Origin: Candidatus Gastranaerophilales bacterium
GTDB lineage: Bacteria; Cyanobacteriota; Vampirovibrionia; Gastranaerophilales; JAILCC01
Assembly (NCBI GenBank): GCA_045598245.1
Contig: JAZLLQ010000042.1
Span: forward strand, 2,976 to 66,975
Length of the DNA: 64,000 nt
Reading direction: 5' to 3'
Below are positions 465 through 57,438 of this stretch, one piece after another. Numbering within the stretch: the first letter of the stretch is position 1; each line of letters starts with the position of its first letter. The position numbers and the translations under genes were made by a program. A model generated the notes under the pieces. The model ran no database searches. It saw only the letters and a program-made list of their open reading frames with translations, and had not been told where the DNA came from.

Positions 465-537
465 TGGGCGATACAGGGCTCGAACCTGTGACCCCCTGAA
501 TGTCATTCAGATGCGCTACCAACTGCGCTAATCGCCC
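465..537 (-). tRNA. tRNA-Val (anticodon GAC)
   Basis: The reverse complement reads GGGCGAT-TA-GCGC-AGTTGGTA-GCGC-A-TCTGA-ATGACAT-TCAGG-GGGTC-ACAGG-TTCGAGC-CCTGT-ATCGCCC-A. This folds as a full cloverleaf: 7-bp acceptor, D arm, anticodon loop with U33 and GAC at 34-36, and a TTCGAGC T loop. CCA is not encoded. Confidence 0.9.
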
Positions 538-723
538 ACAAATCTTTATTTAATTGTCAAATCTTTTTAACCGCGCAGTTGGTTTAATCTAAATACCTCC
601 GCTGCTGCTCCGGTTTGGCGCTAATGCCCACAAATCTTTATTTAATTGTCAAATCTTTTTAACTGCGCAGTTGGTTTAATCTAAATACCTCCGCTGCTGC
701 TCCGGTTTGGTGCTAATCGCCCA
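525..723. repeat. tandem direct repeat, about 93 bp x 2.15, starting inside the tRNA-Val 5' end
   Basis: Unit 1 is 525-617, unit 2 is 618-709 (one 1-nt deletion and one C/T change), and a partial unit 3 is 710-723. Each unit begins with a copy of tRNA positions 1-13 (gcgctaatcgccc on the + strand). Each also contains gcgcagttgg, an inverted copy of the tRNA D-arm segment ccaactgcgc. Confidence 0.85.
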
Positions 724-802
724 TAACTCAACTATAACACAAATAAATATTTTGTAAAATTTTTTATAACATACGACCATATTTGACATAAACATAATTT
801 AA

Positions 803-898
803 CATAAAAGATATCACCTGACATAAATATCAGGTGATAGAAACTTTTCGAAAAAATCCTTACTATAGTAACGTTTCGAAAGCATTTATTGTATAATA
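803..898 (-). ncRNA. tracrRNA (type II-C)
   Basis: On the minus strand, 897->863 reads AUUAUACAAUAAAUGCUUUCGAAACGUUACUAUAG. This pairs with the minus-strand CRISPR repeat transcript as 24 bp perfect, a 4-nt internal loop, then 7 bp perfect. It is followed by UAAGG, a weak UUCG stem, and a perfect 10-bp hairpin (812-821/830-839) with a U-rich tail (UCUUUUAUG). Confidence 0.8.
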
Positions 899-902
899 AG
901 AA

Positions 903-930
903 ATTATATAAAATAAAATTTACTTGTCAA
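903..930 (-). promoter_or_regulatory. sigma70-type promoter for tracrRNA
   Basis: On the minus strand: TTGACA (930-925), a 16-nt spacer, then TATAAT (908-903). The predicted start is about 6-7 nt downstream, at the first base of the anti-repeat (about 897-898). Confidence 0.6.
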
Positions 931-964
931 CAACTGCTTTTAATATTTTCAAGGAGAATATAGC

Positions 965-3900
965 ATGGAAAAAATTTTAGGTTTAGATATAGGTATAGCA
1001 TCAGTCGGATATTCCGTTATTAATTATGATGATGAAAATTTTAACGGTGAAATTTTAAAAACAGGTGTAAGAGTTTTTGAAGCATGTGAAGTTGCTAAGA
1101 CAAAAGAATCATTGAATGTTGCACGCAGAAATTTTAGAGGAACAAGGAGAGTTTTATCAAGACGACAAAACAGATTAAAATCAATAAAACAATTGTTTAT
1201 TTCAAATAATTATTCAACCGAAGAACAAATAAATAATATGTTTTACGGAACATCAAACAGAATTGATGTTTGGGAATTAAGAAAATCGGCTTTAAACAGA
1301 CTTTTGACAATTGAAGAATTTTATAGAATACTTCATCAAATCGCTAAAAGACGAGGCTTTAAATCCATAAGAAAATCTGAAGAAGCAAAGAGAGAAGGTT
1401 CTTTGTTAAAAGGTTTAAAAGAAAACAAATTAAATTTTGAAAACAGTAGTTATCAGACAATTGGTGAAATGTTTGCAACAATTTATACCGGTGATGATGC
1501 AAAAAGAAACAAAAGAGATGACTATAAAAACTCTATCCCGAGGGAATTATTACTGGAAGAAATTGAAATAATATTTAAAAAACAACGTGAATTTGGTGCC
1601 GAATTTGCAAGCGAAGATTTTGAAAATGAATATAAAAGAATAGCGTTTTATCAAAGAGCTTTGCAATCAATGGAAAATATGGTCGGATATTGTCAATTTG
1701 AAAAAGATAAAAAAAGAGCGCCAAAAGCAGCATATACATCAGAAATTTTCGTAGCAGCACAAAAATTAGTCAACACAAAATTATTATCAACAAGCGGTGA
1801 TGAATTAAATTTATCGGGCGAACAAATTAATGAAATTATTGAGCTTGCACATTCAAATTCAAAAGTAACTTATAAACAAGCAAGAAAATTACTTGAACTT
1901 GATGAGGATATCCGTTTTAAAACTCTGCAATACGGTAAAATTCAAAAAGATAAAAAAACAGGTGAAGAAAAAGTTATTAATCCTGAAGATGCTACTTTAA
2001 TTGAACTTAAAAAATATCAGGAATTTAAAAAAGCAATAATTAAAAATACAAATGAAGCATATTTTGAAACAATAAAATATGATAAAGATTTATTCAATAA
2101 TATTGCAAGAATTTTAACTTACGAAAAGTCTGATGAAGCAATCAGAGAACAAATGAAAAACGAAGGAATTTGCGAAAATATTATTAACAGTGTGATTGAT
2201 ATTTCAGCAAGTAAAGTTATGCACTTATCAATTGAAGCTATGGAAAAAATTATTCCTTATATGTTACAAGGTTTAAAATACAATGATGCTTGTGAGCAAG
2301 CAGGGTATAATTTTAAAAATGACAAAAAGTCGAAAGGTTTAGAATTTTTACCTGTATTACAAGAACAAACGACAAATCCTGTTGTAAACAGAAGTATTTC
2401 TCAAACAAGAAAAGTAATAAATGCTTTAATCAGAGAATATGGGAAATTTGATAAAATCATTATTGAAACCGCAAGAGATTTAGGCAAATCTGTTGAGGAA
2501 AGAAATAAAATCATTTCAGGTCAAAAAGATTTCCAAAACGAAAAAGAATTAGCCAAGGCAAGATGTATTGAAAATGGTATAAATCCTGAGTCAAAAAATA
2601 ATTTGTTAAGATTTAGACTTTGGGAAGAACAAGGCGGATATTGTCCGTACTCTAAAAAACCTATTGATATTAAAAGATTATCTGAACCTAATTATACGGA
2701 TATTGATCATATTATCCCTTATTCAAGATGTTTTGATGACAGTTTAAATAATAAAGTTCTTTGTCTTTCTGATGAAAACAGGCAAAAAGGTAATAAAATT
2801 CCTTACGAATATTTATCAGGGAAATATAATTGGGATGAATATTCTGTTTGGATTAGAGCATTAAAATTACGTTCAGCAAAACAAAACAGACTTTTAAGAA
2901 AAACTTATGCAGCTGATGAAGAAGGTTTTTCAAGTCGTAATTTGAATGATACTCGTTATATTACAACTTTTATCAAAGATTATTTAAAGGAAAATCTTTC
3001 AAGTAAAGTTCAAACAAGAAACGGTTCATTAACTGCATACCTGAGAAATCAATGGGGAATAAATAAAAACCGTGAAGAAAATGACCGCCACCACGCAATT
3101 GATGCAACTGTTCTTGCTTGTTCAACACAAGGTATGGTTCAATATTTATCAACAATTTCAGCAAAAAGAGAAAACTATGATTTTATAAACGGCTCAAAAC
3201 CTAAATTTAAAAAGCCGTGGGAAACTTTTAGCGAAGATTTGAAAAAATCAATTTCTGAAATTTTTGTATCTCGTGCCACGAGAAATAAAATCCCCGGCGG
3301 AATGCACAAAGCAACTATTTATAGTCCAAAACATCTTGATGAAGGTTTTAAAACATTAAAAATATCAATACAGGATATAACTTTAGAAAAACTTGAAACA
3401 ATGTTTGATAAAGAAAGAAATATCGCAATTTATAATGTTTTAAAAGAAAGATTAATTGAATTTAATAATAACCCGCAAAAAGCATTTACAAAGCCTGTTT
3501 ATATGCCGTTATCAGAAGTAAAACAACAGGCAGGAATAAAACCGCATGAAATAAAAACAGTAAAATTAAAAATTTCAGGAACATCAGGGCTGAAAGTTCA
3601 TAACGGTTTTGCAGAGAATGATTCTATGCCGAGAACCGATGTATTTTCCAAGAAAAACAAAAAAGGTAAAGAAGAATTTTATCTCGTTCCTATTTATGTT
3701 TCGGATTTTGCAAAAGGAGTTTTGCCTAACAAAGCAATTTCTACAGGAAAAGATGAAATCATTATTGATGATACGTTTGCTTTTAAGTTTTCTATGTTTC
3801 CTAACACTTTAATTTGTGCCAATAAAACAACAAATCCAAAAGAAGAACAATGGGGATATTTTAGAGGTACGGATATTGATTCTGCAAGGATAACATTAAT

Positions 3901-4057
3901 TGATGTTGATAATTCTCAAAATAGAAATAGAGTAGCAGTGAAGAGTTTGGAAACATTTAAAAAATACCAAGTCGATATTTTAGGTAATTATCATGAAGTT
4001 AAAAGTGAATCACGTCAACCGATAAAACTTAAAAATACAAATAAGAAAGCTAAATAA
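965..4057 (+). CDS. cas9: Cas9, compact type II-C-like (1030 aa)
   Basis: RuvC-I is LGLDIGIASVGYSV. The arginine-rich bridge helix is RRNFRGTRRVLSRRQNRLKSIKQL. RuvC-II is IIIETARD. HNH is DIDHIIPYSRCFDDSLNNKVLCLSDENRQKGNKIPYE. RuvC-III is DRHHAIDATVLA. RBS AAGGAG at 951-956. cas1 and cas2 follow, with no csn2 or cas4. Confidence 0.97.
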   Translation: MEKILGLDIGIASVGYSVINYDDENFNGEILKTGVRVFEACEVAKTKESLNVARRNFRGTRRVLSRRQNRLKSIKQLFISNNYSTEEQINNMFYGTSNRIDVWELRKSALNRLLTIEEFYRILHQIAKRRGFKSIRKSEEAKREGSLLKGLKENKLNFENSSYQTIGEMFATIYTGDDAKRNKRDDYKNSIPRELLLEEIEIIFKKQREFGAEFASEDFENEYKRIAFYQRALQSMENMVGYCQFEKDKKRAPKAAYTSEIFVAAQKLVNTKLLSTSGDELNLSGEQINEIIELAHSNSKVTYKQARKLLELDEDIRFKTLQYGKIQKDKKTGEEKVINPEDATLIELKKYQEFKKAIIKNTNEAYFETIKYDKDLFNNIARILTYEKSDEAIREQMKNEGICENIINSVIDISASKVMHLSIEAMEKIIPYMLQGLKYNDACEQAGYNFKNDKKSKGLEFLPVLQEQTTNPVVNRSISQTRKVINALIREYGKFDKIIIETARDLGKSVEERNKIISGQKDFQNEKELAKARCIENGINPESKNNLLRFRLWEEQGGYCPYSKKPIDIKRLSEPNYTDIDHIIPYSRCFDDSLNNKVLCLSDENRQKGNKIPYEYLSGKYNWDEYSVWIRALKLRSAKQNRLLRKTYAADEEGFSSRNLNDTRYITTFIKDYLKENLSSKVQTRNGSLTAYLRNQWGINKNREENDRHHAIDATVLACSTQGMVQYLSTISAKRENYDFINGSKPKFKKPWETFSEDLKKSISEIFVSRATRNKIPGGMHKATIYSPKHLDEGFKTLKISIQDITLEKLETMFDKERNIAIYNVLKERLIEFNNNPQKAFTKPVYMPLSEVKQQAGIKPHEIKTVKLKISGTSGLKVHNGFAENDSMPRTDVFSKKNKKGKEEFYLVPIYVSDFAKGVLPNKAISTGKDEIIIDDTFAFKFSMFPNTLICANKTTNPKEEQWGYFRGTDIDSARITLIDVDNSQNRNRVAVKSLETFKKYQVDILGNYHEVKSESRQPIKLKNTNKKAK

Positions 4058-4944
4058 TGAGTTGGAAAACAATATTATTTTCTAATCCCTGTAAACTTCA
4101 CATAAAGAATTATCAACTTGTTTATCAAAATGATAATTCTTGTGAAGAAATTTCGATTCCTATGGAAGATATAGGAACAATAATTTTGGAAAATTCTCAA
4201 ATTACAATAACAAATTATATGTTATCAATGTGTGCGGATTATGAAATTACCGTTTTAACCTGCGATAACAAACATAAGCCTAACGGGATTTTGACTCCGT
4301 TTTATCAACACAGCAGAAATACAAAAGTTGCTTTTGCACATATAAACATGAAAGAGCCGTTAAAAAAACAAATTTGGCAAAAAATTATTAAACAAAAAAT
4401 AAAAAATCAATCTGTTGTTTTAAAAATATTATTTGAAAATGATTATTTAGACTTATTTATAAACAAAGTCCAATCAGGTGATACAACTAATATTGAAAGT
4501 TACACCTCGAAACTTTATTGGCAAATACTTTTTGATAATTTTAAACGTCATTCGGCAGATAAAATAAACGCTTGTCTTGATTACGGGTATGCAATTATCA
4601 GAAGTACAATTTCTAAATATATTGCCTCAAGCGGTTTAATTCCGTGCTTGGGTGTTCATCACTGTAATGAATTAAATGCTTTTAATTTAACAGAAGATTT
4701 AATAGAATCGTTCAGACCATTTGTTGATTTAATGGTAAGCAGTATGGATATTGTTAATGATACGGAATTAAACAAAAACGATAAAGCATATCTTTTATCA
4801 ATATTAACAAAACAATGTCAATTTAAAGGTGAACAAATAACGGTTCAAAATGCTTGCGAAAATATTTGCAAAACTTTTGTTAAAACAATTTCAGAAAAAA
4901 ATATAAATTTATTAGAGTTACCTGAATTTATAGAGGAAAAATGA
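4057..4944 (+). CDS. cas1: Cas1 integrase (type II)
   Basis: 295 aa. The start overlaps the cas9 stop (TAATG). The sequence and size are typical of type II Cas1, and it sits between cas9 and cas2. Confidence 0.93.
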   Translation: MSWKTILFSNPCKLHIKNYQLVYQNDNSCEEISIPMEDIGTIILENSQITITNYMLSMCADYEITVLTCDNKHKPNGILTPFYQHSRNTKVAFAHINMKEPLKKQIWQKIIKQKIKNQSVVLKILFENDYLDLFINKVQSGDTTNIESYTSKLYWQILFDNFKRHSADKINACLDYGYAIIRSTISKYIASSGLIPCLGVHHCNELNAFNLTEDLIESFRPFVDLMVSSMDIVNDTELNKNDKAYLLSILTKQCQFKGEQITVQNACENICKTFVKTISEKNINLLELPEFIEEK

Positions 4945-5273
4945 GTATAAAAGGTGATGATATTTTTATGCGTTTATTTGTGTTTTTTGACCTTCCTGTT
5001 GCAACAAAAAAAGACAGAAAATTTGCGACTCGTTTTAGAAAAGACTTGTTAAATGAAGGATTTACCATGTTACAGTTTTCTGTTTATTGCAGAATTTGCA
5101 GAGGACATGATATTGTCGAACGAGAAATCCGAAGGATAAAAGCAGTTTTACCACCAAAAGGTAATGTTAGAATTTTGCAAGTAACTGACAAGCAATATGG
5201 CAATATGCAATTTTTAGTAGGCATGCCTAAAAAAGAAGAAATTATTGCTTCCGAACAGTTACTTTTATTCTGA
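4941..5273 (+). CDS. cas2: Cas2
   Basis: 110 aa with a 4-nt ATGA overlap with cas1. An N-terminal beta strand with the conserved Asp (LFVFFDLP), typical of Cas2, lies directly upstream of the array. The true start may be the internal M10 (MRLFVFFD). Confidence 0.9.
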   Translation: MSIKGDDIFMRLFVFFDLPVATKKDRKFATRFRKDLLNEGFTMLQFSVYCRICRGHDIVEREIRRIKAVLPPKGNVRILQVTDKQYGNMQFLVGMPKKEEIIASEQLLLF

Positions 5274-5291
5274 TTTTTTTAAAATAAAAAG

Positions 5292-5329
5292 ACCAAACCT
5301 CTTATGCTTACTTGGTTTTGAGGTTTGGT
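5292..5329 (-). terminator. hairpin between cas2 and the array; acts as a Rho-independent terminator on the minus strand
   Basis: A 10-bp perfect stem, accaaacctc (5292-5301) / gaggtttggt (5320-5329). On the minus strand it is followed by cuuuuuauuuu. There is no T tract on the plus side. Confidence 0.55.
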
Positions 5330-6750
5330 ATTATACAATAAATGCTTTCGAAAGGAAACTATAGCTGTCCAAGCTGTACCATGTTTTTTTACATCATTAT
5401 ACAATAAATGCTTTCGAAAGGAAACTATAGCAGATATTACGGATGAAAAGGAAGTTGATTTATTATACAATAAATGCTTTCGAAAGGAAACTATAGCTAT
5501 GATTTTTGAAATATCAAACTGCATGGCATTATACAATAAATGCTTTCGAAAGGAAACTATAGCACCGTTGTAAAATAATCTCTCAATTCACTTATTATAC
5601 AATAAATGCTTTCGAAAGGAAACTATAGCAGGTCAAAGGTTAAGTTCATTTGATACTCGATTATACAATAAATGCTTTCGAAAGGAAACTATAGCTTAAT
5701 GCCGACTTCAAAGGTAAACATCGCAATTATACAATAAATGCTTTCGAAAGGAAACTATAGCTAAGATGTTTTTCTTCTTTTTTTACAGGTTATTATACAA
5801 TAAATGCTTTCGAAAGGAAACTATAGCTCTTTTAAAGTTTTAATTTCGCTTTGCAAAATTATACAATAAATGCTTTCGAATGGAAACTATAGCGGGGTGG
5901 TACTTGCGAACAAATGAGAGAGGATTATACAATAAATGCTTTCGAAAGGATACTATAGCTCAGTTAAGTCATCAATCCTTTTTATATCAATTATACAATA
6001 AATGCTTTCGAAAGGAAACTATAGCCGGAAACAATTTTATTGCCATTCTGTGAAGATTATACAATAAATGCTTTCGAAAGGAAACTATAGCTTCAGTACC
6101 AACGATGTCATATCCGATAAATTATACAATAAATGCTTTCGAAAGGAAACTATAGCCAATGTTCAAAAACATTGTTGGGAAAAAAGATTATACAATAAAT
6201 GCTTTCGAAAGGAAACTATAGCTCATCCCAATTATCTTTTTGTGCTGCATCAATTATACAATAAATGCTTTCGAAAGGAAACTATAGCCTTATGATGGCA
6301 ATTATCAAAGAGCTATTGATTATACAATAAATACTTCCGAAAGGAAACTATAGCTGGAAGTGCAAGTCTTGCAACTCCTCAGATATTATACAATAAATAC
6401 TTCCGAAAGGAAACTATAGCTTACTCTGCAATTCAAGCACCCGAAAGTTCATTATACAATAAATGCTTTCGAAAGGAAACTATAGCGCGTTTATTCATTT
6501 CCCAAATAACGCCGTGATTATACAATAAATGCTTTCGAAAGGAAACTATAGCGGCAAATTGTCTTTGACTTCTTTGTCCATAATTATACAATAAATGCTT
6601 TTGAAAGGAAACTATAGCATGTTTATGGAACTTCCCGAACCTGCAAAGATTATACAATAAATGCTTTCGAAAGGAAACTATAGTATTATAGACCAAGCAC
6701 CCGATTCTATTTTTATTATACAATAAATACTTTCGAAGTGTGCCAAAATT
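5330..6750 (-). CRISPR. CRISPR array, 22 repeats x 36 nt, 21 spacers (20 of 30 nt, one of 29 nt)
   Basis: The + strand repeat is attatacaataaatgctttcgaaaggaaactatagc, with starts at 5330, 5396, 5462 ... 6649. Variant repeats start at 5858, 5924, 6319, 6385, 6583 and 6649. The terminal repeat at 6715 is degenerate (attatacaataaatactttcgaagtgtgcc...). The minus strand is inferred as the transcribed strand from tracrRNA complementarity, the TATAAT at each repeat end, and the terminator at 5292-5329. Confidence 0.95.
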
Positions 6751-10174: not shown

Positions 10175-13100
10175 TTAGTGATCACCTTTTTCGGAGTATT
10201 CATCAAAAATAAAATCATCATCGTATGAAAAAACTCTGTCTGAATATTCTGTTAATTTTAATTCTGCAATTTTTCTTCCGGCTTTTTTATATTCTTTTAC
10301 ACCATTATCATTTTTGAATGATGCAAATTTACTCATTGCTTTTTCAAAACCTCTTAAAATTCTGAAATCATCCTTCGATTTATGATGTTCATAAATTTCT
10401 TGTTTAGCTTTTGCAGTTAAAGTAGAAATTATTTCTCTGCCTTTGTTATCGGTTGTCAAAATTTGGGTATCTTTGTTTATATAAAATTCTTCAACAAATT
10501 TCGTAATTATTGCCTTTGAAATTTCATCATTTATATTAAATCTTTCCATAAATTTATTTAAGTAATTATCGTCTTCATCATCAGAAGCAAACCAATTGTC
10601 TAACTTCATCAAATAAGGAGTTGCTTTTTCTGATGATAAATCAAATCTTTTTAGAATTTCAAAAAATGCGGATGGAATACTTGTTTTAATTTCATTACCT
10701 TTCAAATAATTTTCATACATATTTGCTAAAACAATGTATTGTCCTGCTCTTTGAGGATTAATTTTCCCCGCATGTTTTGAAGAATTTTTTTCCGCTGCTT
10801 TAACCGTTTTTAAATTTGAATTTTTTGCATCCCAATAGGTTAATTTATATGTTGCGGCTTTAATATCGTTATCGGAATTTACGTCTTGTATTGTTTCAAC
10901 GATATATTCGGCTTCTTCTATATTTTCGTCTTTATCCTTATCCGGCATATATTTTTCATAAAAAATATTGGCTAAATCATCTTCACCTTTTTGGTACAGA
11001 ATATCAAGAACAGCAATAAAATTATCCTGAATATTATCAATATTATCTTTCCATTCTCTTATATTTTGAGCCTCACTACTTTCTAAGGCTTGTTCAGATG
11101 TAATAATACCTAAATTAATTTTATCAATGTTTCTCAAAAAACCTATCATATTTTTTCTTTTATCGGTATTTACATTTTGTCTGCCGTCTATAAAATCAAT
11201 AAGTTCGCAGAGTTCATCATTTTGGCTGATTTTATCATAAACCATAACTTCGACAAATCTGTTTTTCAAATCATCAAGAGTAAATTGTTCATACCTGTGC
11301 TGATGTGTTTCTCGGTAATTATCGGTTTTATTAACAGTAATATTAAATTTCTTTAGCAGATTGCGATATGTAGGACCTGATACATTTAAAGCACGAGAGG
11401 CATCTTTAATGTTTTTGCCGAGAGCAATTTGTTCTAATATCTGCTCTTTCGTGATAGATGCAACATTTTGTCTGATTTTTTTGTAATCAATCATAATATC
11501 AAATTTTTCCACCAGTTGATAATACATACTATCTGCAATACCTAATATATTGCAAATTTGCTCTTTTGTATAACCTTCGGAAATTAATCTGCTTAATTGT
11601 TTTTCCGAAATATTTGATACTTTCTCATGGTATATTTGTCGTTCCGTTAAAAGATTATATTGTGCCAATAATCTTGCAGCTGAAGGTCTTGAAATATTAA
11701 GTTCTCTGCAAATATCATTTATACTTTTACCTGATGATAACATACTTGATAATTGTTCTTTGGTAATAGAGGCAATATTTTCAGAATTTTCCATACGCTG
11801 AGTTTTTATTTTATATATTGTTACTAATCTCTTATATGTACTGTCAGATATTTTTAATTTTTTACATATTTCTTCAGCAGTTAAGCCAAAATCGAGAAGT
11901 TCGGATAATTTTTCTTTTGTAATTCCTTCGATTCTTTTCCTTACTTTCTGCATAGGAGTTAGGATGTGATATTGTTTCAGACGATTTCGGAATGTTCTTT
12001 CAGATACTTTCAATATTTTGCATATTTCAGCAGTTGGCAGACCTTCATTTAAAAGTGAAAGTATTTCTTCTTTAGAAATTTGATTAAGCGGTTTTGCCCA
12101 ATGACAATTAGCTTTTTTTTGAATTTTATAAAGTCTTAATAATCTATGGTACGTTGATTCGGAAATATTTAAAAATTCACATTTTGCTTTTACGGAAGTA
12201 CCTGAATTATATAATTTTATCAAAGTTTCTTTAGGTATTTTGGCAATTCTTTTTTGATTTTGGATTTGTAAATTTTCTATGCCATATTTACGCAGATATC
12301 TGGTAATTGTATCAGGATTTACATTATAGCGTTTTGCAATATCCTTGCGTAGCATACCGCTGTTAATTAAAATTTCCAAATCTTCTTTTTCTATTTTTAT
12401 ATTATCAGTTTTTTCCTGCCAAAATGTTTTGACATTATATTTTTTGAGTAATTGTTGCAATGAACTATGTCCGATATTTAACTCTTTTGAGACTTCTTTA
12501 ATGGTTTTACCTTCTTTGAAAAGTTCTTCCAATTGTTCTTTTGAAATACCGCTTATTATTGCACTGCTCGTTTCCATTTCCTGCATCTTGGGAGTTTTTA
12601 AATTATATTTTTCAAATATGGCACGAGTTGTTTCATAAGTTAACCCTAAAATCTGCTTGATTTCCATTAAAGACTTTCCTTGTTGCAAAAATTCTTCCAA
12701 AGTTTCTTTTGTAACACTTCTTGCAACTTCCCTACTTCTAAGGTTTCTTGTTTTTATTCCAAATTTTTTAAGTAATTTTGTATAAGTACCGGTACTTATA
12801 CCTAAAGCATCTTTAACTTCGTACGTGGTTTTTCCGCTGTTAACAAAATCAAGAAGCTGTTCTTTTGTAATATTTTCTATTACAATATTTATGGCTTTTT
12901 TTGAGTGCAACCCAAATTTTTTTATCAGAGCTTTATACTGATTTATAGAAATATTTAAAATTTCACAAATTTCATTTTTTGATTTACCGATATTTATTAA
13001 TTTTTCTATATCATTTTTAGTTATGATTGCACTTTTTTCTCTTTGTATTTGCTGCAAACTCTTTATTCCATATTTACTCGCATATCCTTTTACGGAATCC

Positions 13101-13345
13101 TTGCTGATGTTATACATGGCTCCGATTTCAGCGTATGTTTTACCTTCATTAACTAATTTTTGCAACTCTTCTTTTGAAATTTCTCTGCCTTTAAAAGAAA
13201 GTTCAAACGTATCATTTGCCTGAAATTTTAAAAAAGGATTATTTGAATGAGAATTATTACTAAAATTATTGTTTCTTTGATATAAATTTCTTTTTAAAAA
13301 TGAAATATAAATTTCCATGAAATTCCCCGGATTTATAGTTTGCAT
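10175..13345 (-). CDS. giant protein with 12 tandem helix-turn-helix modules plus a C-terminal domain of about 340 aa of unknown function
   Basis: 1056-aa ORF (alternative start MEIYISF at 13318). Residues 56 to about 715 are 12 diverged repeats of about 55 aa. Their consensus is I(T/S)KEqLxxLlxxGKsxxEIcxxLnISxsTYxrLlKKfgIkT, a resolvase/Hin-like three-helix HTH pattern. Confidence 0.8.
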   Translation of the reverse strand: MQTINPGNFMEIYISFLKRNLYQRNNNFSNNSHSNNPFLKFQANDTFELSFKGREISKEELQKLVNEGKTYAEIGAMYNISKDSVKGYASKYGIKSLQQIQREKSAIITKNDIEKLINIGKSKNEICEILNISINQYKALIKKFGLHSKKAINIVIENITKEQLLDFVNSGKTTYEVKDALGISTGTYTKLLKKFGIKTRNLRSREVARSVTKETLEEFLQQGKSLMEIKQILGLTYETTRAIFEKYNLKTPKMQEMETSSAIISGISKEQLEELFKEGKTIKEVSKELNIGHSSLQQLLKKYNVKTFWQEKTDNIKIEKEDLEILINSGMLRKDIAKRYNVNPDTITRYLRKYGIENLQIQNQKRIAKIPKETLIKLYNSGTSVKAKCEFLNISESTYHRLLRLYKIQKKANCHWAKPLNQISKEEILSLLNEGLPTAEICKILKVSERTFRNRLKQYHILTPMQKVRKRIEGITKEKLSELLDFGLTAEEICKKLKISDSTYKRLVTIYKIKTQRMENSENIASITKEQLSSMLSSGKSINDICRELNISRPSAARLLAQYNLLTERQIYHEKVSNISEKQLSRLISEGYTKEQICNILGIADSMYYQLVEKFDIMIDYKKIRQNVASITKEQILEQIALGKNIKDASRALNVSGPTYRNLLKKFNITVNKTDNYRETHQHRYEQFTLDDLKNRFVEVMVYDKISQNDELCELIDFIDGRQNVNTDKRKNMIGFLRNIDKINLGIITSEQALESSEAQNIREWKDNIDNIQDNFIAVLDILYQKGEDDLANIFYEKYMPDKDKDENIEEAEYIVETIQDVNSDNDIKAATYKLTYWDAKNSNLKTVKAAEKNSSKHAGKINPQRAGQYIVLANMYENYLKGNEIKTSIPSAFFEILKRFDLSSEKATPYLMKLDNWFASDDEDDNYLNKFMERFNINDEISKAIITKFVEEFYINKDTQILTTDNKGREIISTLTAKAKQEIYEHHKSKDDFRILRGFEKAMSKFASFKNDNGVKEYKKAGRKIAELKLTEYSDRVFSYDDDFIFDEYSEKGDH

Positions 13346-13628
13346 GCGTACTAAAAATTCTAAAAAAAAAATTTGTTATTTAGCAGTGAAATCACAAGAG
13401 AAGATTATGTAAAAAATAACAAAGATAATTATGAAGATTTCTTCTTTTATTTAAGCAAAAGTAAAAGAAGAGAAAAGTATAAATCCAAAATAAAGTTTTT
13501 AGCGAAAAAAGTACAACTACAAAAGCAAAATAAACTTCTTATAATTAATATTATCTGTATTTAATTTAATATGTTATAACACGGAATAATTACTAGAAGT
13601 GAAAAATGTTTTGTGCTAAATTCTTATT

Positions 13629-16526: not shown

Positions 16527-19142
16527 GTGTTTTGCAAAATGAAAATATCTCCTATATATAATATTAATGAAAATGATTTTAATATTAAAAGTAAGCATAG
16601 AAATACTTACGGGTTTAATTTTTCATACAAAACATTAAAATTTGGCACTAAAGCAGACAGCTTAGAATTCTCAACGACTCAATATAAAAAAGAAAAAAGG
16701 GAATTTAAACCGAAATTTGTTAAAGAAAAATCTGAAATAGAGTATTTTTTAAGACAAAACGAATATTCGCCTGAGCGTATTGCAAGTGTTATAAGTCGTA
16801 TAAACGGTTCTAATTTGGATATAGTACAAACTATATGCACAAGTGAAAGTTGGAGAGATATTTATGACATAATGAATTGTTTAAACAAGGACAATATTGA
16901 ATTTGTGAGAAAACTTTGTTTTGATAAAGAATTTCCCAAAGAAAAAATTTCAGGAATTTTATCTGGACTAAAAGATTTTAATATGGAGTTTGCCGAGAAA
17001 CTTTGCTTTGATAAAAATTTCCCAAAAACAATAATTGAAGAAATATTATTAGAAACAAATAAAGATAACGTTCATTTTGCGGAGAGATTATGTTTTGACA
17101 AAAAAGCCGAACATATAAACAGAAATCATATAGGCAAAATACTCTCAAATGTAAACAAAGACAATATAAATATAGCTGAGACATTATGTTTTAAAAAAGA
17201 ATTTTCGCCAAGTGCCATTGATGATATTCTTGAGAATATTAATACAACGTCACCCAATATTTCTCTTATAAAAGAACTTTTAAAATATGATATTCCCGAA
17301 GATACAATATCTAATATTCTATGGAAAACAAAAGATAACAAGGAAGAACTTATTCGGGATAAAATTGAATATGTAAGATTAATAAAAGATGCAAGTGTGG
17401 ATGGGTTTGAGCTTGAATATATTCTAACAAATTCAGTTTTCCCGTTTGCTTATTATTTTTATAAAGCATCTGTTCAAGATAATGAGACTGCTAAAAAAAC
17501 AGTAAAAGCACAAGAAGAAAGATGCTTAAAATATCCTGAATTGTATTGCAACGGTGTTTATGACAATTACTATGATTATAAAGTTAAATGCAATAATTTC
17601 TTTGAAAATGAAAATAACAGGTATGCATTGGCAACTTTGGCAGATATTCTCGGAGCAGAAGCACTCAATGACTTTTTGGGATACAGATTTGATGTGGTAA
17701 AAGAATATTTTGCAAAAATACAGTCAACACTTAATTACAATGATTTAAAACTTTTAAAAAGCATGGTGAATTCGAAAAAACCAAACAGACAAAACTTTAT
17801 ATCAAAAGAAAAAATAAGCCTTGTAGATACACTTTTAGCATATAAAAGCCTAGGACTTGATAATAAAAAAATAGAACAAATGTTATCAAAAGGCTGCCTA
17901 GATACCAATGAACTTCATATTGATATATTGAAAGGACTATTTATAAAATACGGATTAAGCAAACAGGAATTTGATAATACAGATAATGAAATACTTTCTA
18001 AATGGAATTTAAAATACATACAACTGCTTGAAGAAGAAATGAAATTAGATATGCATCATGTATTTCTTGATGTAATAAAAGGTGCAAATACAGGTGATTT
18101 TAAAAATTATATTCACAACAAGCAACATCCTTACGGCTTAGCAAACAAAAGAACTCGAAAAGAGTTTGAAACTTATGGTTTAGACTATGATGCATGGGTA
18201 AATCCGCCCCAAAGTACAGTTACACTATTTAAACACCGTGATAAAACAGCAAAAATCTTATCAAATTCAGTATTTATGATAACAAATGCAATTGAAGAAT
18301 TAAGACGTACGCCTGCAAAAGAGTATATTGATAAAGTTTTAAGTAACTGTATAAAATCAGGGAACTTCGCTATTCCGGAAGAAACGGCACGAAATAAAGA
18401 GAAATTATGTAATTTAGTGAATAATATTCTCGGGCAGCTAAATAAAGTTTGGCAACGAGCATATCAGAATGTACACAATCCGACAGACAGACAGCAAGCG
18501 GCAATTGCAAGAAGAACGCTGAGTATTCAATTTACACTATCACAGGTTAAAAATGCACTGCAAGACTTGCAAAAAGTTGAGAGTAAAAAAAATATCAACC
18601 AAACTATAAAAATGTGGGATAGAAACCCACAAAAAGATTTATTTCAAGGCAATTATTCAAATTGTTGCATTGGCATAAATAAATCAAACGGAAATGTTAT
18701 GCCAAGTTATCTTTTAAATACCATGTTTAATATGATGGAAATAATTGATAATGATTCCGGCGAAACAATAGGTAATGCCCTTGTTTATTATGCAAAAGAC
18801 GAGAAAAATCAACCTTATTTTGTAATAGATAACATTGAAATTCATAACCATTACAGAAAAACATCAGATATAGAACTTGAACTCAGGGATGCAATTACCG
18901 AATTTGCACAAAAAATCAATATGGCTGTTACTAAAAAAGCTGATACCCCGATAATTATTGGTGAAGAGCATAATGATATCACTCTTGCATATCTGCCAAA
19001 TTTGTCAGAAGAATTGAGTCCTATCGGTTCTATGGAGTGTAACGAAATGTATTTAGACCTATTCGGCGGAAGACAGTTTGACGTTAATTCAATAAAAAAA
19101 CAAGTTGAATTTTTTGACTTACTTCATCCGATTTGCAAATAA
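16527..19142 (+). CDS. large hypothetical protein with about 6 tandem LCFDK repeats and a Cys-containing C-terminal domain
   Basis: 871-aa ORF; the likely start is ATG 16539 (MKISPIY). The roughly 30-aa repeats include NIEFVRKLCFDKEFPKEKISGIL, NMEFAEKLCFDKNFPKTIIEEIL, NVHFAERLCFDKK..., NINIAETLCFKKEFSPSAIDDIL and NISLIKELLKYDIPEDTISNIL. The C-terminal region contains LFQGNYSNCCIG and FVIDNIEIHNHY. Confidence 0.7.
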   Translation: MFCKMKISPIYNINENDFNIKSKHRNTYGFNFSYKTLKFGTKADSLEFSTTQYKKEKREFKPKFVKEKSEIEYFLRQNEYSPERIASVISRINGSNLDIVQTICTSESWRDIYDIMNCLNKDNIEFVRKLCFDKEFPKEKISGILSGLKDFNMEFAEKLCFDKNFPKTIIEEILLETNKDNVHFAERLCFDKKAEHINRNHIGKILSNVNKDNINIAETLCFKKEFSPSAIDDILENINTTSPNISLIKELLKYDIPEDTISNILWKTKDNKEELIRDKIEYVRLIKDASVDGFELEYILTNSVFPFAYYFYKASVQDNETAKKTVKAQEERCLKYPELYCNGVYDNYYDYKVKCNNFFENENNRYALATLADILGAEALNDFLGYRFDVVKEYFAKIQSTLNYNDLKLLKSMVNSKKPNRQNFISKEKISLVDTLLAYKSLGLDNKKIEQMLSKGCLDTNELHIDILKGLFIKYGLSKQEFDNTDNEILSKWNLKYIQLLEEEMKLDMHHVFLDVIKGANTGDFKNYIHNKQHPYGLANKRTRKEFETYGLDYDAWVNPPQSTVTLFKHRDKTAKILSNSVFMITNAIEELRRTPAKEYIDKVLSNCIKSGNFAIPEETARNKEKLCNLVNNILGQLNKVWQRAYQNVHNPTDRQQAAIARRTLSIQFTLSQVKNALQDLQKVESKKNINQTIKMWDRNPQKDLFQGNYSNCCIGINKSNGNVMPSYLLNTMFNMMEIIDNDSGETIGNALVYYAKDEKNQPYFVIDNIEIHNHYRKTSDIELELRDAITEFAQKINMAVTKKADTPIIIGEEHNDITLAYLPNLSEELSPIGSMECNEMYLDLFGGRQFDVNSIKKQVEFFDLLHPICK

Positions 19143-48356: not shown

Positions 48357-48965
48357 ATGTGTGAAATATTTAGCATCATTGGGGGTGCTATTTTAGGTGC
48401 TATAGGAGTTACTGGAGCATCAGCTGCTGTTACTACAGGGGTTGGTGTTGCTACTGCTGCTATTGGTGGTGCTGCTATTGGTGCTGGTGCTGGTATGGCT
48501 ACTTCTGCTATTGCTGGTGGGGATATTGGAAAAGGAGCTTTATTTGGAGCTTTGGGTGGTGGTATTTTTGCTCCGGTTGGTGCTGCTGCTGGTGCTGCTT
48601 TTGGAGCTGCTGGTGGTACTTTAGCTGGTGTAGCTGTAGGACAAACTGCTGGTGGTGTTGGTGGTGCTATAGCTGGTAGTGCTATTGGTGGTTTAACAGG
48701 TGGTGTTGTATCAAATATAAGAGCATCAAAAAATGCTAGTGCTGTTAATTCAGCCTTAGCTCAAAGTGCTTTAAATAATAGTATGAAAACCACTTCACAG
48801 GTAGAAGCTACTGAAAGATTTTCAAGAACAGCTGATTCCATAAAAGATAAAGGTTTATTAAAAAGAACATTAAGTTCTTTAAGAATCCCAATGAATAAAT
48901 CAACCTCAAGTGTTGGTTTAAATACAGGGGAATCAACAACTACAACAGGATTAAATATAGCATAG
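48357..48965 (+). CDS. Gly/Ala-rich glycine-zipper protein in the T7 gp7.3 position
   Basis: 202 aa. It begins MCEIFSIIGGAILGAIG. About 120 aa are G/A/V/T repeats, and it ends TTTTGLNIA (my recollection of T7 gp7.3 is that it ends ...SSGGGINI). It lies immediately upstream of the portal gene. Confidence 0.55.
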   Translation: MCEIFSIIGGAILGAIGVTGASAAVTTGVGVATAAIGGAAIGAGAGMATSAIAGGDIGKGALFGALGGGIFAPVGAAAGAAFGAAGGTLAGVAVGQTAGGVGGAIAGSAIGGLTGGVVSNIRASKNASAVNSALAQSALNNSMKTTSQVEATERFSRTADSIKDKGLLKRTLSSLRIPMNKSTSSVGLNTGESTTTTGLNIA

Positions 48966-48974
48966 GTGGAATAG

Positions 48975-50585
48975 ATGGAAGATATTAAATTACACAATCC
49001 TTCACTTGCAACAATGTATGAAAGAATGAAAACGGATAGACAGCAATATTTAGATAAAGCTAGAGAAGCTGCTAAATATACAATTCCATCTTTAATTACT
49101 GATGAGTATAATGCTACTCCAAAAGTAATTGAAACACCTCACCAATCTGTAGGTGCTGATGGAGTAAATAATCTATCGGCAAAAACTACATTGGCTTTAT
49201 TACCACCAAATCAACCATTTTATAAATTTACAATGGATGATTTGACATTAAATCGACAAGCAAAAGAAATCGGACAGAATAAGTCTGAGTTTGAAGCAGA
49301 TGTTGTTAAAGGATTATCAACAGTTGAAAAAATGCTTACCGATTATAATGAACAACATGGTGATAGAGTTTGCTTTGGTGAAGCACAAAAACATGAGTAT
49401 GTAGCTGGAAATGTTATGCTGGTTCATACTCCTAAAGATGGTTTAAAATATTATCCGTTATCTCGATATGTTGTTAAAAGAGATTATGTAGGTAATGTAT
49501 TAAAAGCAATAACACAAGAAACAATCAATTTCTATGCACTTCCTTTTGAAATGCAAGATGCTGTTTTAACTCAAATTGCTACAGAAGAAAAGAAAGATAC
49601 TGAAACTGTACAAAAAGAATTAAAAGAAAAAGATGTTGATTTGTTTACAGGTTATATAAGAAAAGGAAAGACTTGGGAAACTTGGCAAGAAGTTAAAGGT
49701 GTAGAAGTACCAAAATCAAGAGGTAAATATCCTATAGATATATGTCCTTTTACAGCTTTAAGATATACGAGCATTGATGGTGAATCTTATGGTCGTGGTC
49801 TTATTGAAGAATATATTGGTGATATTTCTTACTTAGATACACTTTCCTTAGCAATAAAAGAAACAAGCTTAGCTGCTGCTAAGTTACTTATTTTGGTATC
49901 TCCTAACGGAGTAACTAAAATAAAATCCTTAGCTAAAGCTAAAAATGGTGATTTTGTAGTTGGTAGAGCTGAAGATGTACAAGCTTTACAAACACAAAAA
50001 TATTATGATTTGAATACTGCTCAGGCAGAATCAGATAAAATTGAAAGAAGATTAAATAGAATTTTCTTATTAAAAGCAGCTATCCAAAGAGATGCTGAAA
50101 GAGTTACAGCTGAAGAAATAAGAGAGATGGCTAAAGACTTGGATGAAGCTCATGGTAATTTGTATTCCGTAATGAGTAAAGAGTTTCAATATTGGTATGT
50201 AAAAATCTCTTATTATCACATGAGAAAAGAAAAAGGTAATTTATTACCGGATTTAATTAAAGATAAAAATATTAAATTAACTGTAACTACTGGGTTAGAA
50301 GCATTGGGTAGAGGTTCTGAATTAACAAAATGGGCTACATTCTTCGATATTATGGCGAAGTTTGCTCAAGCTGCTCAAATTACCGGAGCTAAGATTGAAC
50401 CTTTAGCTGCTAAAGTTGCTGCTAGTCTTAATCTTGATATTGAAGGTGTATTCTACACTGAAGAAGAAAAGGCTGAAATGACTAAGCAAGCACAACAACA
50501 ACAATTATTAGAAAAAGCTGCTCCTAATATGGTTAATAAATATGGTGATTTAGTGATGCAGCAACAAAATAAAGAACAAGTATAG
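48975..50585 (+). CDS. portal (head-tail connector) protein, T7 gp8-like
   Basis: 536 aa. Motifs match my recollection of T7 gp8: YTIPSL; DGESYGRGLIEEYIGDI vs DGESYGRSYIEEYLGDL; GDFVVGRAEDV vs GDFVTGRPEDI; ERVTAEEIR identical; TTGLEALGRGSEL vs STGLEAIGRGQDL. Confidence 0.93.
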   Translation: MEDIKLHNPSLATMYERMKTDRQQYLDKAREAAKYTIPSLITDEYNATPKVIETPHQSVGADGVNNLSAKTTLALLPPNQPFYKFTMDDLTLNRQAKEIGQNKSEFEADVVKGLSTVEKMLTDYNEQHGDRVCFGEAQKHEYVAGNVMLVHTPKDGLKYYPLSRYVVKRDYVGNVLKAITQETINFYALPFEMQDAVLTQIATEEKKDTETVQKELKEKDVDLFTGYIRKGKTWETWQEVKGVEVPKSRGKYPIDICPFTALRYTSIDGESYGRGLIEEYIGDISYLDTLSLAIKETSLAAAKLLILVSPNGVTKIKSLAKAKNGDFVVGRAEDVQALQTQKYYDLNTAQAESDKIERRLNRIFLLKAAIQRDAERVTAEEIREMAKDLDEAHGNLYSVMSKEFQYWYVKISYYHMRKEKGNLLPDLIKDKNIKLTVTTGLEALGRGSELTKWATFFDIMAKFAQAAQITGAKIEPLAAKVAASLNLDIEGVFYTEEEKAEMTKQAQQQQLLEKAAPNMVNKYGDLVMQQQNKEQV

Positions 50586-50597
50586 AGGAGATTTTTT

Positions 50598-50846
50598 ATG
50601 GCGAGCAACAAATCAAAAGCCAACAAAGCTAAAACAGAAGTAGCAAAAGTTGAACCAAAAGTTGAAGAAACTGAAGAAGTAGATGAATCAGTTGTTGAAG
50701 AAGAAATTATTGATTCTGAAATTGAAAATTTAACAGCTAAAACAGAAGTAATTGAAAAAGCTATGTCTGAAGTTGAAGAAGTGAAATCAAAAGCTCAAAA
50801 AGAATATGATGAAGCTTTTGCATCATTGGTTATTGTTAGAAATTAG
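50598..50846 (+). CDS. small highly acidic phage protein
   Basis: 82 aa, E/D-rich, with RBS GGAG upstream. It lies between the portal and scaffold genes. Confidence 0.5.
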   Translation: MASNKSKANKAKTEVAKVEPKVEETEEVDESVVEEEIIDSEIENLTAKTEVIEKAMSEVEEVKSKAQKEYDEAFASLVIVRN

Positions 50847-50860
50847 GATTGTTTTATTTT

Positions 50861-51667: not shown

Positions 51668-51679
51668 GAGAGATAAGAA

Positions 51680-52654: not shown

Positions 52655-52689
52655 TATAGAGTTCGCTTGATAAATTTTTATACTTCTTT

Positions 52690-52721
52690 AGGGTAGCTAG
52701 AAATGGCTACCCTATTTTTTT
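52690..52721 (+). terminator. strong terminator immediately after the capsid gene (analogous position to T7 T-phi)
   Basis: agggtagc-tagaaatg-gctaccct followed by attttttt. Confidence 0.75.
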
Positions 52722-52735
52722 AATTTAGGAGAAAT

Positions 52736-53542: not shown

Positions 53543-53544
53543 AA

Positions 53545-56877: not shown

Positions 56878-56882
56878 AATAA

Positions 56883-57428: not shown

Positions 57429-57438
57429 GGGAAAATAG

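Follow-up and report, generated by a model that had tools for sequence, protein, structure and literature searches.

The window, the whole 64-kb stretch of DNA analyzed here, comes from a gut Gastranaerophilales bacterium (Melainabacteria). On its minus strand lies an open reading frame for a 1056-aa protein, placed exactly where a preliminary description of the sequence had put it. An identical protein is deposited at NCBI (P0001), with the start at Met10 and a length of 1047 aa. The gene is solitary, ends in a terminator of its own and shares an intergenic region with uvrA. Its promoter presumably lies within this region (13346–13628); a promoter scan there gave a result no better than shuffled sequence. 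The same window holds a type II CRISPR locus, whose array (5329–6737; about 20 repeats of 36 bp at a 66-bp period, with variable spacers) is 3.4 kb from the gene. Four genes, on both strands, lie between the two. Coordinates are collected in Table 1.

Table 1. Features of the gene and its flanks (positions in the window; residues of the 1056-aa protein).
Feature	Position	Strand	Basis
Intrinsic-terminator-like hairpin, 17-bp stem plus T run, directly 3' of the stop codon	10103..10141	-	
Whole gene, 1056-aa protein (stop codon 10175-10177)	10175..13345	-	ORF listing, identical NCBI P0001
C-terminal alpha/beta module, residues 960-1056: strand-strand-helix-helix, then four strands	10178..10468	-	model secondary structure
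Conserved C-terminal domain, residues 673-1056 (384 aa), net charge -18	10178..11329	-	profile search, AlphaFold
Array of twelve HTH units, residues 56-672, net charge +38	11330..13180	-	unit starts, Pfam HTH_23/HTH_28/HTH_7, model helices
HTH unit 12, residues 631-672	11330..11455	-	unit starts, AlphaFold model
HTH unit 11, residues 579-630	11456..11611	-	unit starts, AlphaFold model
HTH unit 10, residues 527-578	11612..11767	-	unit starts, AlphaFold model
HTH unit 9, residues 475-526	11768..11923	-	unit starts, AlphaFold model
HTH unit 8, residues 423-474	11924..12079	-	unit starts, AlphaFold model
HTH unit 7, residues 370-422; linker 410-418 pLDDT <50	12080..12238	-	unit starts, AlphaFold model
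HTH unit 6, residues 318-369	12239..12394	-	unit starts, AlphaFold model
HTH unit 5, residues 267-317	12395..12547	-	unit starts, AlphaFold model
HTH unit 4, residues 211-266, longest linker, 56 aa	12548..12715	-	unit starts, AlphaFold model
HTH unit 3, residues 159-210	12716..12871	-	unit starts, AlphaFold model
HTH unit 2, residues 108-158	12872..13024	-	unit starts, AlphaFold model
HTH unit 1, residues 56-107	13025..13180	-	unit starts, AlphaFold model
N-terminal region, residues 1-55, predicted mostly disordered, bears SFKG tag	13181..13345	-	AlphaFold pLDDT, regex
A/T-rich intergenic region, common to the gene and divergently transcribed uvrA	13346..13628	.	sequence

Apart from its disordered first 55 residues, the protein is filled by an array of helix-turn-helix (HTH) units (residues 56–672) and a C-terminal domain (673–1056). 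The array comprises twelve consecutive units, the number first proposed, with starts running from residue 56 to residue 631 (Table 1); Pfam profiles recognize them independently. Successive starts lie 52, 51, 52, 56, 51, 52, 53, 52, 52, 52 and 52 aa apart (range 51–56, mostly 52). Several dimensions given in the preliminary description needed correction: the period is about 52 aa rather than about 55, the array ends near residue 672 rather than about 715 (DNA 11330–13180 rather than from about 11200), and the C-terminal domain spans about 384 aa rather than about 340.

The units share the consensus ItKEqL..L.n.GKt..EIc..LNIS..Ty..LLkKY.Ikt, in which the framework positions quoted earlier are recovered, and they are anciently diverged. 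Compared in register, their DNA is on average 48% identical (maximum 59%), and identity at third codon positions is 0.41, where composition alone would give 0.34. Protein identity among units averages 33% (19–45%), and Tandem Repeats Finder reports no repeats in the gene. The original view of the copies as diverged, with no recent duplication, therefore holds.

Profile and structure comparisons identify the units as homeodomain-like or resolvase-type HTHs. In Pfam, the protein matches HTH_23 (E=1.6e-43; 145.8 bits, cut-off 24.6; 8 stretches), HTH_28 (E=2.7e-40; 136.6 bits, cut-off 25) and the resolvase family HTH_7 (E=7.7e-26; 90.4 bits, cut-off 23.8; 7 stretches). AlphaFold models each unit (pLDDT about 80) with helices of about 9, 8 and 10 residues, the second and third forming the helix-turn-helix, and a fourth, linker helix; the model of the entire array, made from a 7-sequence alignment, has a pTM of 0.25 and places the units relative to one another without confidence. 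A unit-profile search of the PDB returned the CRISPR-repeat-binding protein Cbp2 as the best natural match (2lvs; E=9e-7), with both Cbp2 HTHs matched, followed by LuxR/GerE/NarL regulators, an IS21 transposase, and the HTHs of Bin3, Sleeping Beauty PAI, Hin and gamma-delta resolvase. All of these are DNA binders. The assignment to three-helix HTHs of the resolvase/Hin type thus stands.

Ahead of the array, AlphaFold pLDDT falls below 50 at residues 1–6 and 17–53. Here lies the SFKG motif noticed earlier at the N-terminus (residues 50–53, DNA 13187–13198). A loose regular expression finds a related tag, Y-S-x-I-[ASP]-F-[GTKC]-[AG] by consensus, within the N-terminal 110 aa in 122 of the 145 full-length members of the family described below. 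A similarly loose search for an N-terminal F-[GKT]-[AG] tag showed no proteome-wide enrichment (1.7%, with a background of about 1.4%).

The nearest known relatives of the unit are Cbp1, by NCBIfam, and Cbp2, by PDB search and by Foldseek of the array (probability 0.72). HTH_Cbp1 is the best NCBIfam match, and two consecutive units cover its profile positions 5–92. Cbp1 and Cbp2 resemble the array in their tandem homeodomain-like HTHs, short basic linkers and the unit tail '...LKK(F/L)G(I/L)K'. Published work on Cbp1 describes three HTHs that align 5' to 3' along the CRISPR repeat, with a 21-bp binding motif (PMC10883916). Nevertheless, Cbp1 has three units and Cbp2 two, compared to twelve in the window protein, and both are small stand-alone archaeal proteins of 100–150 aa that lack the N-terminal tag and the 384-aa C-terminal domain. 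The window protein scores 94.3 bits against the Cbp1 equivalog cut-off of 140 (NCBIfam NF040595), and its twelve units, N-terminal region and 384-aa domain do not fit the definition of Cbp1 as a small protein with three HTH repeats. Nor did its homolog loci reveal a conserved tie to CRISPR: L001, L082 and L083, all on short contigs, showed neither CRISPR arrays nor cas genes.

Serial tri-helical HTHs, each with one adjacent subsite, also occur in Paired (PAI+RED), Myb (R1R2R3), Pipsqueak (4 Psq) and the bipartite domains of Tc1/mariner/Sleeping Beauty, and both Sleeping Beauty PAI and Mos1 are among the sequence or fold matches of the array. Such series are known with 2–5 units and are eukaryotic or transposase-linked. 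No DDE or transposase domain shows up in the window protein (Pfam, NCBIfam). Serine recombinases (Hin, gamma-delta resolvase, Bin3) have an HTH_7 unit like those of the window protein, but as a single C-terminal HTH on a catalytic resolvase domain. The window protein has no such domain, and none appears among the best 25 of 67 matched Pfam families, all of which are HTH-type or small nucleic-acid-binding domains. An IS transposase (IS630, IS3, IS481, IS1, IS21) was rejected on NCBIfam scores of 25–57 bits against cut-offs of 100–224; for IS630, IS481, IS1 and IS21, the best stretch is about 30–55 HTH-type positions near the profile start.

Among phage families, multi-HTH 'DNA binding proteins' and HTH-bearing homing endonucleases (PHROGs 14131, 12058, 323 and 8446) match about four consecutive units collinearly at the same period of about 50 aa, with residues 474–670 aligning to positions 131–329 of the phrog_14131 profile. 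Serial arrays of the same HTH type therefore exist elsewhere. These families, of 184–768 aa, lack the C-terminal domain of the window protein, which has zero PHROG matches. Moreover, the similarity is at profile level only, with no BLAST-level relatives in 50,697 phage genomes or IMG/VR.

TALEs, mTERFs and other helical-repeat readers share a concept with the array, many short repeats in a row with variable residues that could read a long site piecewise. Their folds are unrelated to HTHs, however, and they use one repeat per base (TALE) or a continuous superhelix. For the array, no comparable superstructure is confidently predicted: the register is regular at 52 aa, but the 7-sequence model has only the pTM of 0.25 given above. 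The highest PDB match by sequence and fold is 8VD6, a 'CAP repeat' designed de novo with ProteinGenerator, which has five tandem HTH-like units; it is artificial, with identical units of 33 residues, evolutionarily unrelated and not known to bind DNA (PMC12339374). The preliminary description had found no precedent for a dozen HTHs in series. This holds for the architecture of twelve HTHs plus C-terminal domain, which is rare and undescribed in Pfam, NCBIfam, the PDB, PHROGs, PADLOC and the literature, but tandem arrays of the HTH type are not unique, as Cbp1/Cbp2 and the phage PHROGs illustrate.

Judged by sequence comparison, the C-terminal domain defines a larger, undescribed family in Gastranaerophilales-type MAGs. 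Because a word-indexed search with a 29-sequence alignment of the domain returned one fragment, the family was re-collected from a single member. The profile search with the domain yielded 158 clusters at E<=1e-3, 93 of them at E<=1e-30. The window protein, first sequence of alignments A2–A4, matches the profile of about 400 positions over its full length and has the invariant K, F/E, G.K, K, R, F/D and terminal H by which members are recognized. Most of the invariant residues sit in the terminal alpha/beta module (K981, F1000/E1001, G1015, K1017, K1030, R1037, F1047/D1048 and terminal H1056; alignments A3, A4 and A6). AlphaFold models the domain at pLDDT 87.7 and pTM 0.77. Comparison with Pfam, the PDB, PHROG and Foldseek found no relative, and the Foldseek search advised at the outset gave sub-threshold matches alone. 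A RelE/YoeB-like toxin at the C-terminal end (pattern 'YK.ELK..G..DRLFS...F.FD.YS..G.H') was rejected: hhalign probabilities against RelE and YoeB sequences were 0.8% and 0.3%, and the empty Pfam and PDB profile searches and sub-threshold Foldseek matches also oppose this BECR-fold reading.

The defining feature of the family is this domain, not the HTH array. The survey of repeat number suggested earlier shows wide variation: about two-thirds of the full-length members have no HTH, and the remainder carry 1–12 units with periods of 47, 52 or 56 aa. Across homologs, array size clusters at 8–12 units and the period is almost invariant at 52 aa. Members have either an HTH array or an alternative region of about 320 aa ahead of the same C-terminal domain, as expected of exchangeable targeting modules, and the alpha/beta module is joined to other N-terminal regions in P0103, P0104, P0112, P0118, P0133 and P0134. 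Since most members lack HTHs, the core function of the family would be independent of them.

The C-domain profile found zero relatives among GTDB representative genomes, and in a UvrA scan of the same genomes the gene was absent from all 80 uvrA loci examined. No synteny was seen with the closest genome (L002). Neither the C-terminal domain nor the array has a match in the viral, phage and plasmid collections IMG/VR, INPHARED and PLSDB. These empty searches speak against a viral, phage or plasmid origin of the gene, which also shows no signs of mobility.

Positional orthology between window units and those of homologs about 30% identical was not detectable, so conservation was measured in a closer group of collinear orthologs, 40–67% identical (P0002, P0003, P0005, P0006 and P0011). 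At the variable helix-3 positions 27, 28, 31 and 32, identity between orthologs is 0.45–0.56, compared to 0.08–0.20 between units. At the variable helix-1 and turn positions, ortholog identity is just 0.25–0.36. Recognition-helix positions thus differ among units, as first noted, and orthologs conserve them above other variable surface positions. That helix-3 residues are unit-specific yet conserved fits the prediction of unit-specific reading.

The array probably grips a long stretch of DNA. In the reading we favor, to which we give slightly less than an even chance, the product would be a cytoplasmic, modular, long-footprint DNA-binding protein whose HTH array tethers an effector domain of unassigned activity to DNA. 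Its twelve basic homeodomain-like units, each a three-helix HTH with a linker helix in fixed 52-residue register, would line up on double-stranded DNA as the two to three HTHs of Cbp2 and Cbp1 do on the CRISPR repeat, and the third helix of every unit, distinct from those of the others, would insert into the next segment of groove. With about 7–8 bp per unit, as in Cbp1, the footprint of the whole array may reach about 90–100 bp. Acting as a targeting module, the array would carry the conserved acidic C-terminal domain to that DNA. A stronger proposal, which we consider unlikely, makes the array a candidate modular HTH reader whose twelve differentiated units would each take a subsite of several base pairs and jointly define one unique site about 100 bp long. 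By this TALE-like targeting principle it would deliver a new effector or enzymatic domain, and the family would swap the array for other targeting regions.

A search of the window for periodic cognate sites, also advised at the outset, came up short: apart from the CRISPR array, Tandem Repeats Finder returned nothing but short repeats of low copy number. We count this lack of a periodic or extended site against the favored tether reading, along with the pTM of 0.25 from seven sequences, the lack of HTHs in most family members, the missing positional orthology with homologs about 30% identical, and a C-terminal domain without a recognizable catalytic fold.

The array could instead be a sequence-independent, polyvalent, low-specificity clamp that coats or tethers DNA in chromatin-like fashion, its sole role being to keep the C-terminal domain chromosome-bound. 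A net charge of +38 would suit such a nucleoid anchor, as would the lack of a cognate site in the window, the want of clear positional orthologs for the window units in the more distant homologs, and the partly homogenized units of some homologs (up to 72% identity in P0018). Purely electrostatic binding, however, would not be expected to keep helix-3 surface positions unit by unit across orthologs above other surface positions, and arrays remain differentiated rather than homogenized. We regard the anchor as possible but improbable. The same charge, together with membership in DNA-binding HTH families, favors nucleic-acid binding over a structural scaffold, in which the helical repeats would bind no nucleic acid and form a solenoid or rod acting as spacer or protein-interaction surface. 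The strict 52-aa register and extra linker helix do suggest a regular superstructure, and 8VD6, the top structural and sequence match, packs its HTH-like units compactly (PMC12339374). Yet 8VD6 is a design rather than a natural relative, and AlphaFold finds no confident packing between units (pTM 0.25). We consider the scaffold quite unlikely.

The C-terminal domain could also be an enzyme. The tandem HTHs match the segments with which HNH and other homing-endonuclease families bind DNA (PHROG 8446, 4645 and 20467; 'HEase' in PADLOC), and P0008, the sole match outside the family in the first search, combines similar HTHs with LAGLIDADG and methyltransferase parts. Like modular homing endonucleases, the protein might then be a targeted nuclease or nucleic-acid-modifying enzyme, with the array recognizing a long site and the alpha/beta module catalytic through its invariant K/E/K/K/R/D/H. 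Invariant charged residues are indeed concentrated in the last 100 or so residues, and Foldseek gives weak matches to the RNase-toxin domains 3ao9_B (probability 0.13) and 6cp9_D. We think this very unlikely: Pfam, NCBIfam, PHROGs, PDB profile search and Foldseek reveal no nuclease family or fold, the RelE and YoeB comparisons were negative, and the gene is missing from phage, plasmid and viral collections and shows no signs of mobility. Kinship of the unit to Cbp1 and Cbp2, with a CRISPR array of about 20 repeats only 3.4 kb off, also invites the idea of a bacterial counterpart that binds the repeats of the adjoining type II array and modulates its transcription. Here the NCBIfam score of 94 falls below the Cbp1 cut-off of 140, the short-contig homolog loci lack CRISPR arrays and cas genes, a twelve-unit footprint misfits a 36-bp repeat with a 66-bp period and variable spacers, and four genes on both strands intervene. 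Such a role seems to us most improbable.

To our knowledge, DNA binders with HTHs in series have so far been described with two to about five units. With 9–12 differentiated units in fixed register, a natural array would, if true, be the longest known HTH reader, and if each unit reads its own subsite, the array would represent a new type of modular scaffold with which to recognize very long DNA sites. The conserved C-terminal domain marks a sizeable family without annotation or detectable fold relative. Gut Melainabacteria, from which it comes, remain poorly understood, and few if any have been cultured. Once the role of the C-terminal domain is known, hundreds of 'hypothetical proteins' would gain an annotation, and lineage-specific chromosome biology might come to light.

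The open reading frame at 10175..13345 on the minus strand is real, as the preliminary description claimed, and codes for 1056 amino acids. The protein occurs once in NCBI, on one 68-kb contig, as the 1047-aa P0001, whose start is put at Met10. The earlier count of twelve helix-turn-helix (HTH) units is confirmed both by motif scan and by a self-derived HMM; the units start at residues 56, 108, 159, 211, 267, 318, 370, 423, 475, 527, 579 and 631. Unit spacing is 51–56 aa and exactly 52 in 8 of 11 gaps. Judged by these starts and spacings, the array ends at residue 672, short of the 715 first proposed, and the C-terminal domain (residues 673–1056) has ~384 aa rather than ~340. Net charge is +38 for the array, which is strongly basic, and −18 for the acidic C-terminal domain. 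The copies are as diverged as first described: aligned in register, the units have a mean DNA identity of 48% and at most 59%, third codon positions agree at 0.41 where composition alone predicts 0.34, protein identity averages 33%, and Tandem Repeats Finder reported no repeat inside the gene. This divergence shows the copies to be old, and rules out both recent duplication and an assembly artefact.

The HTH unit belongs to a known superfamily. Consistent with the proposed resolvase-type fold, curated Pfam models match units independently: HTH_23 (E=1.6e-43, 8 stretches), HTH_28 (2.7e-40), the resolvase HTH_7 (7.7e-26) and HTH_Tnp_1 (1.7e-22). The top NCBIfam match is HTH_Cbp1, an archaeal CRISPR repeat-binding protein, with two consecutive units covering profile positions 5–92; its 94 bits fall short of the 140-bit cut-off. 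All five NCBIfam transposase models also score under cut-off, and in four (IS630, IS481, IS1, IS21) the best stretch is a short HTH segment near the profile start. When a profile of 30 units was searched against PDB sequences, the best natural match was Cbp2 (2lvs, E=9e-7, both Cbp2 HTHs aligned), followed by LuxR/GerE/NarL, IS21 transposase, Bin3, Sleeping Beauty PAI, Hin and gamma-delta resolvase. Ahead of these came 8VD6 (E=1e-25), an artificial ProteinGenerator repeat protein (PMC12339374). It is a de novo design and no relative; the generative model evidently arrived at a tandemly repeated HTH-like consensus unit. This 'CAP repeat', compared with residues 52–175, is the array's top PDB match in fold as well as in sequence.

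AlphaFold2 modelling of residues 1–700 from a 7-sequence alignment predicted that each unit has four helices, three forming the HTH and one the linker, and that the N-terminus is disordered (residues 1–6 and 17–53 below 50 pLDDT). Unit pLDDT is ~80 against a pTM of 0.25, so single units in this model are credible and the arrangement between them is not. Foldseek with the array model listed the kinds of protein already met in the PDB profile search, none significant overall.

Units differ in their recognition helices, as the preliminary description held. Between-unit identity at variable helix-3 positions 27, 28, 31 and 32 is 0.08–0.20, whereas identity among five collinear orthologs (40–67% identical) is 0.45–0.56 there. 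Helix-1/turn positions 7, 8, 11, 12 and 16 are just as variable, with ortholog identity of only 0.25–0.36. Unit 5 reads SKS[AT]Y[SN]VLLTKY and unit 6 STKFYY[ST]LM[RN]KF in four of five orthologs, and P0011, the most divergent, is close to both. Because ortholog identity in helix 3 exceeds that of helix-1/turn positions, the recognition helix holds unit-specific information kept by selection. This fits differentiated recognition of DNA subsites without proving it. The almost constant 52-aa register is an argument for linker geometry being important.

Searching 5.8 billion clusters with the whole protein recovered only six real relatives, all metagenomic, 867–987 aa long and ~30% identical. Common to these relatives are the array, the tag S-F-K/T-G/A at the N-terminus and a C-terminal domain whose last residues read '...F.FD.YSP.GDH'. 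An exhaustive search of 1.84 billion representatives with a C-terminal domain profile found 158 clusters, 93 at E<=1e-30. A self-derived HMM finds no HTH units in 71 of 104 full-length members; these are ~780 aa long, with an unrelated ~320-aa region ahead of the same C-terminal domain. Since most full-length members thus keep this domain without HTHs, the array is one of several exchangeable front ends in an undescribed family that the C-terminal domain defines. Arrays vary in repeat number from 1 to 12, with sizes mostly 8–12, and the window protein stands at the top of the range found. Most array-bearing members have a 52-aa period; it is 56 aa in P0015 and 47 aa in P0047 and P0052. Spacing is irregular in P0135 (3286 aa), whose HTHs number at least 12 and are spread over ~1600 residues.

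The C-terminal domain was modelled confidently (AlphaFold2, 32-sequence alignment; pLDDT 87.7, pTM 0.77) as a helical part (1–281, domain numbering) followed by an alpha/beta module (288–379) of two strands, two helices and four strands. Invariant residues cluster in this module: K309, F328/E329, G343, K345, K358, R365, F375/D376 and the terminal H384 (K309 to H384 are protein K981 to H1056). The module is also fused to other, unrelated N-terminal regions. It occurs in the giant members P0134 (2452 aa), P0135 and P0118 (1256 aa), the first two sharing a distinct N-terminal region without Pfam matches. No family member carries Pfam annotation in its C-terminal part, and the sole source name is 'hypothetical protein'.

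The HTH-array gene stands alone. An A/T-rich spacer of 283 bp separates it from the divergently oriented uvrA, and a strong terminator hairpin (10141–10103) marks its other end. The neighbouring UvrA is 89% identical to that of one uncultured MAG and 66–72% identical to those of dozens of Candidatus Gastranaerophilales/Melainabacteria MAGs from guts and rumens; these identities indicate a gut-dwelling host that belongs to the lineage sister to Cyanobacteria, which is non-photosynthetic. The family is apparently lineage-restricted, judging by this UvrA placement, its low-GC, Lys/Asn-rich character and the metagenomic sources of its matches, and was not found in phage, plasmid or IMG/VR collections. 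Neighbours at homolog loci are unrelated housekeeping genes. At two loci (L084 7635–7946, L085 604–915) a conserved 103-aa ORF without Pfam matches lies directly upstream of P0168 (~780-aa class) on the same strand, a possible partner gene; no equivalent adjoins the window gene. Elsewhere in the window, the phage structural block is probably a podovirus-like prophage, and the 92-bp repeat upstream of cas9 might be related to a tracrRNA or leader.

Features of the window and their coordinates
Feature	Position (nt)	Details
Complete type II CRISPR-Cas locus	525-6737	
92-bp tandem repeat	525-723	2.2 copies; upstream of cas9
cas9	965-4057	1030 aa
cas1	4057-4944	
cas2	4941-5273	
CRISPR array	5329-6737	~20 repeats, 66-bp period; consensus repeat ATTATACAATAAATGCTTTCGAAAGGAAACTATAGC
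HTH array	11330..13180	minus strand; residues 56-672; from unit starts
Phage structural gene block	47960-64000	
Head-tail adaptor/portal-like	48975-50585	phrog_449, E=2e-141
Major head protein	51680-52654	phrog_267, E=2e-63
Tail protein	54108-56426	phrog_457, E=8e-194
Protein with peptidase-like C-terminal segment	57439-59466	
1513-aa ORF		continues beyond window end

A run of hypothetical proteins of 136–459 aa (40521–46180, also 16527–19142), without PHROG matches, carries tags resembling SFKG in the HTH-array protein within about the first 50 residues ('..N-F-G-A', 'I-N-F-K-G', 'A-F-G-A' or 'R-F-G-Q'). A loose tag regular expression was not enriched proteome-wide (1.7% vs ~1.4%). Small Gastranaerophilales ORFs of 158–167 aa at three loci (L044, L048, L038) start 'SFTANPINRDAKTRREKVEDAATVTGGVGAGAAATRG', closely paralleled by the N-termini 'SFTGNPINKAGEELSQEAIKKASEAISAIGKASI' of HTH-array members P0004 and P0012. 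These sequences suggest a common N-terminal module of tag plus Ala/Gly/Ser-rich segment, perhaps for targeting or anchoring.

We infer the function of the HTH-array protein throughout. The best-supported reading, which we hold tentatively and at slightly below even confidence, has the protein in the cytoplasm, with twelve HTH units that would target a C-terminal effector. The units would follow one another along DNA like the HTHs of Cbp1, three of which are placed in 5' to 3' order on one ~24 bp repeat (PMC10883916). Extrapolated from Cbp1, the array would cover ~90–100 bp and direct the family's C-terminal effector domain to the bound DNA. The protein might instead be a non-specific nucleoid anchor, which we think unlikely, or a structural solenoid that does not bind DNA, which is more doubtful still. 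A targeted enzyme resembling a homing endonuclease, which overlaps the best-supported reading, has a slim chance of being correct.

Proximity to a type II CRISPR-Cas locus 3.4 kb away raises the idea of a Cbp1-like binder of the CRISPR array, and a search of the window for periodic candidate target DNA found none besides that array. However, no CRISPR is present on homolog contigs, and the footprint of twelve units mismatches the geometry of 36-bp repeats and 30-bp spacers. CRISPR-array binding is thus very improbable, and we treat the closeness of the two loci as coincidence, leaving it only a small chance of being otherwise.

Serial HTH readers are already known from Cbp1/2, paired, Myb and Psq. 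The earlier statement that no described family with a dozen HTHs in series was known survives in that we found no literature on such arrays. Matches at profile level show some phage families to carry runs of about four units of this kind. The family defined by the C-terminal domain is uncharacterised. What is new is the scale of 9–12 differentiated units, their strict register and their fusion to an undescribed domain family.
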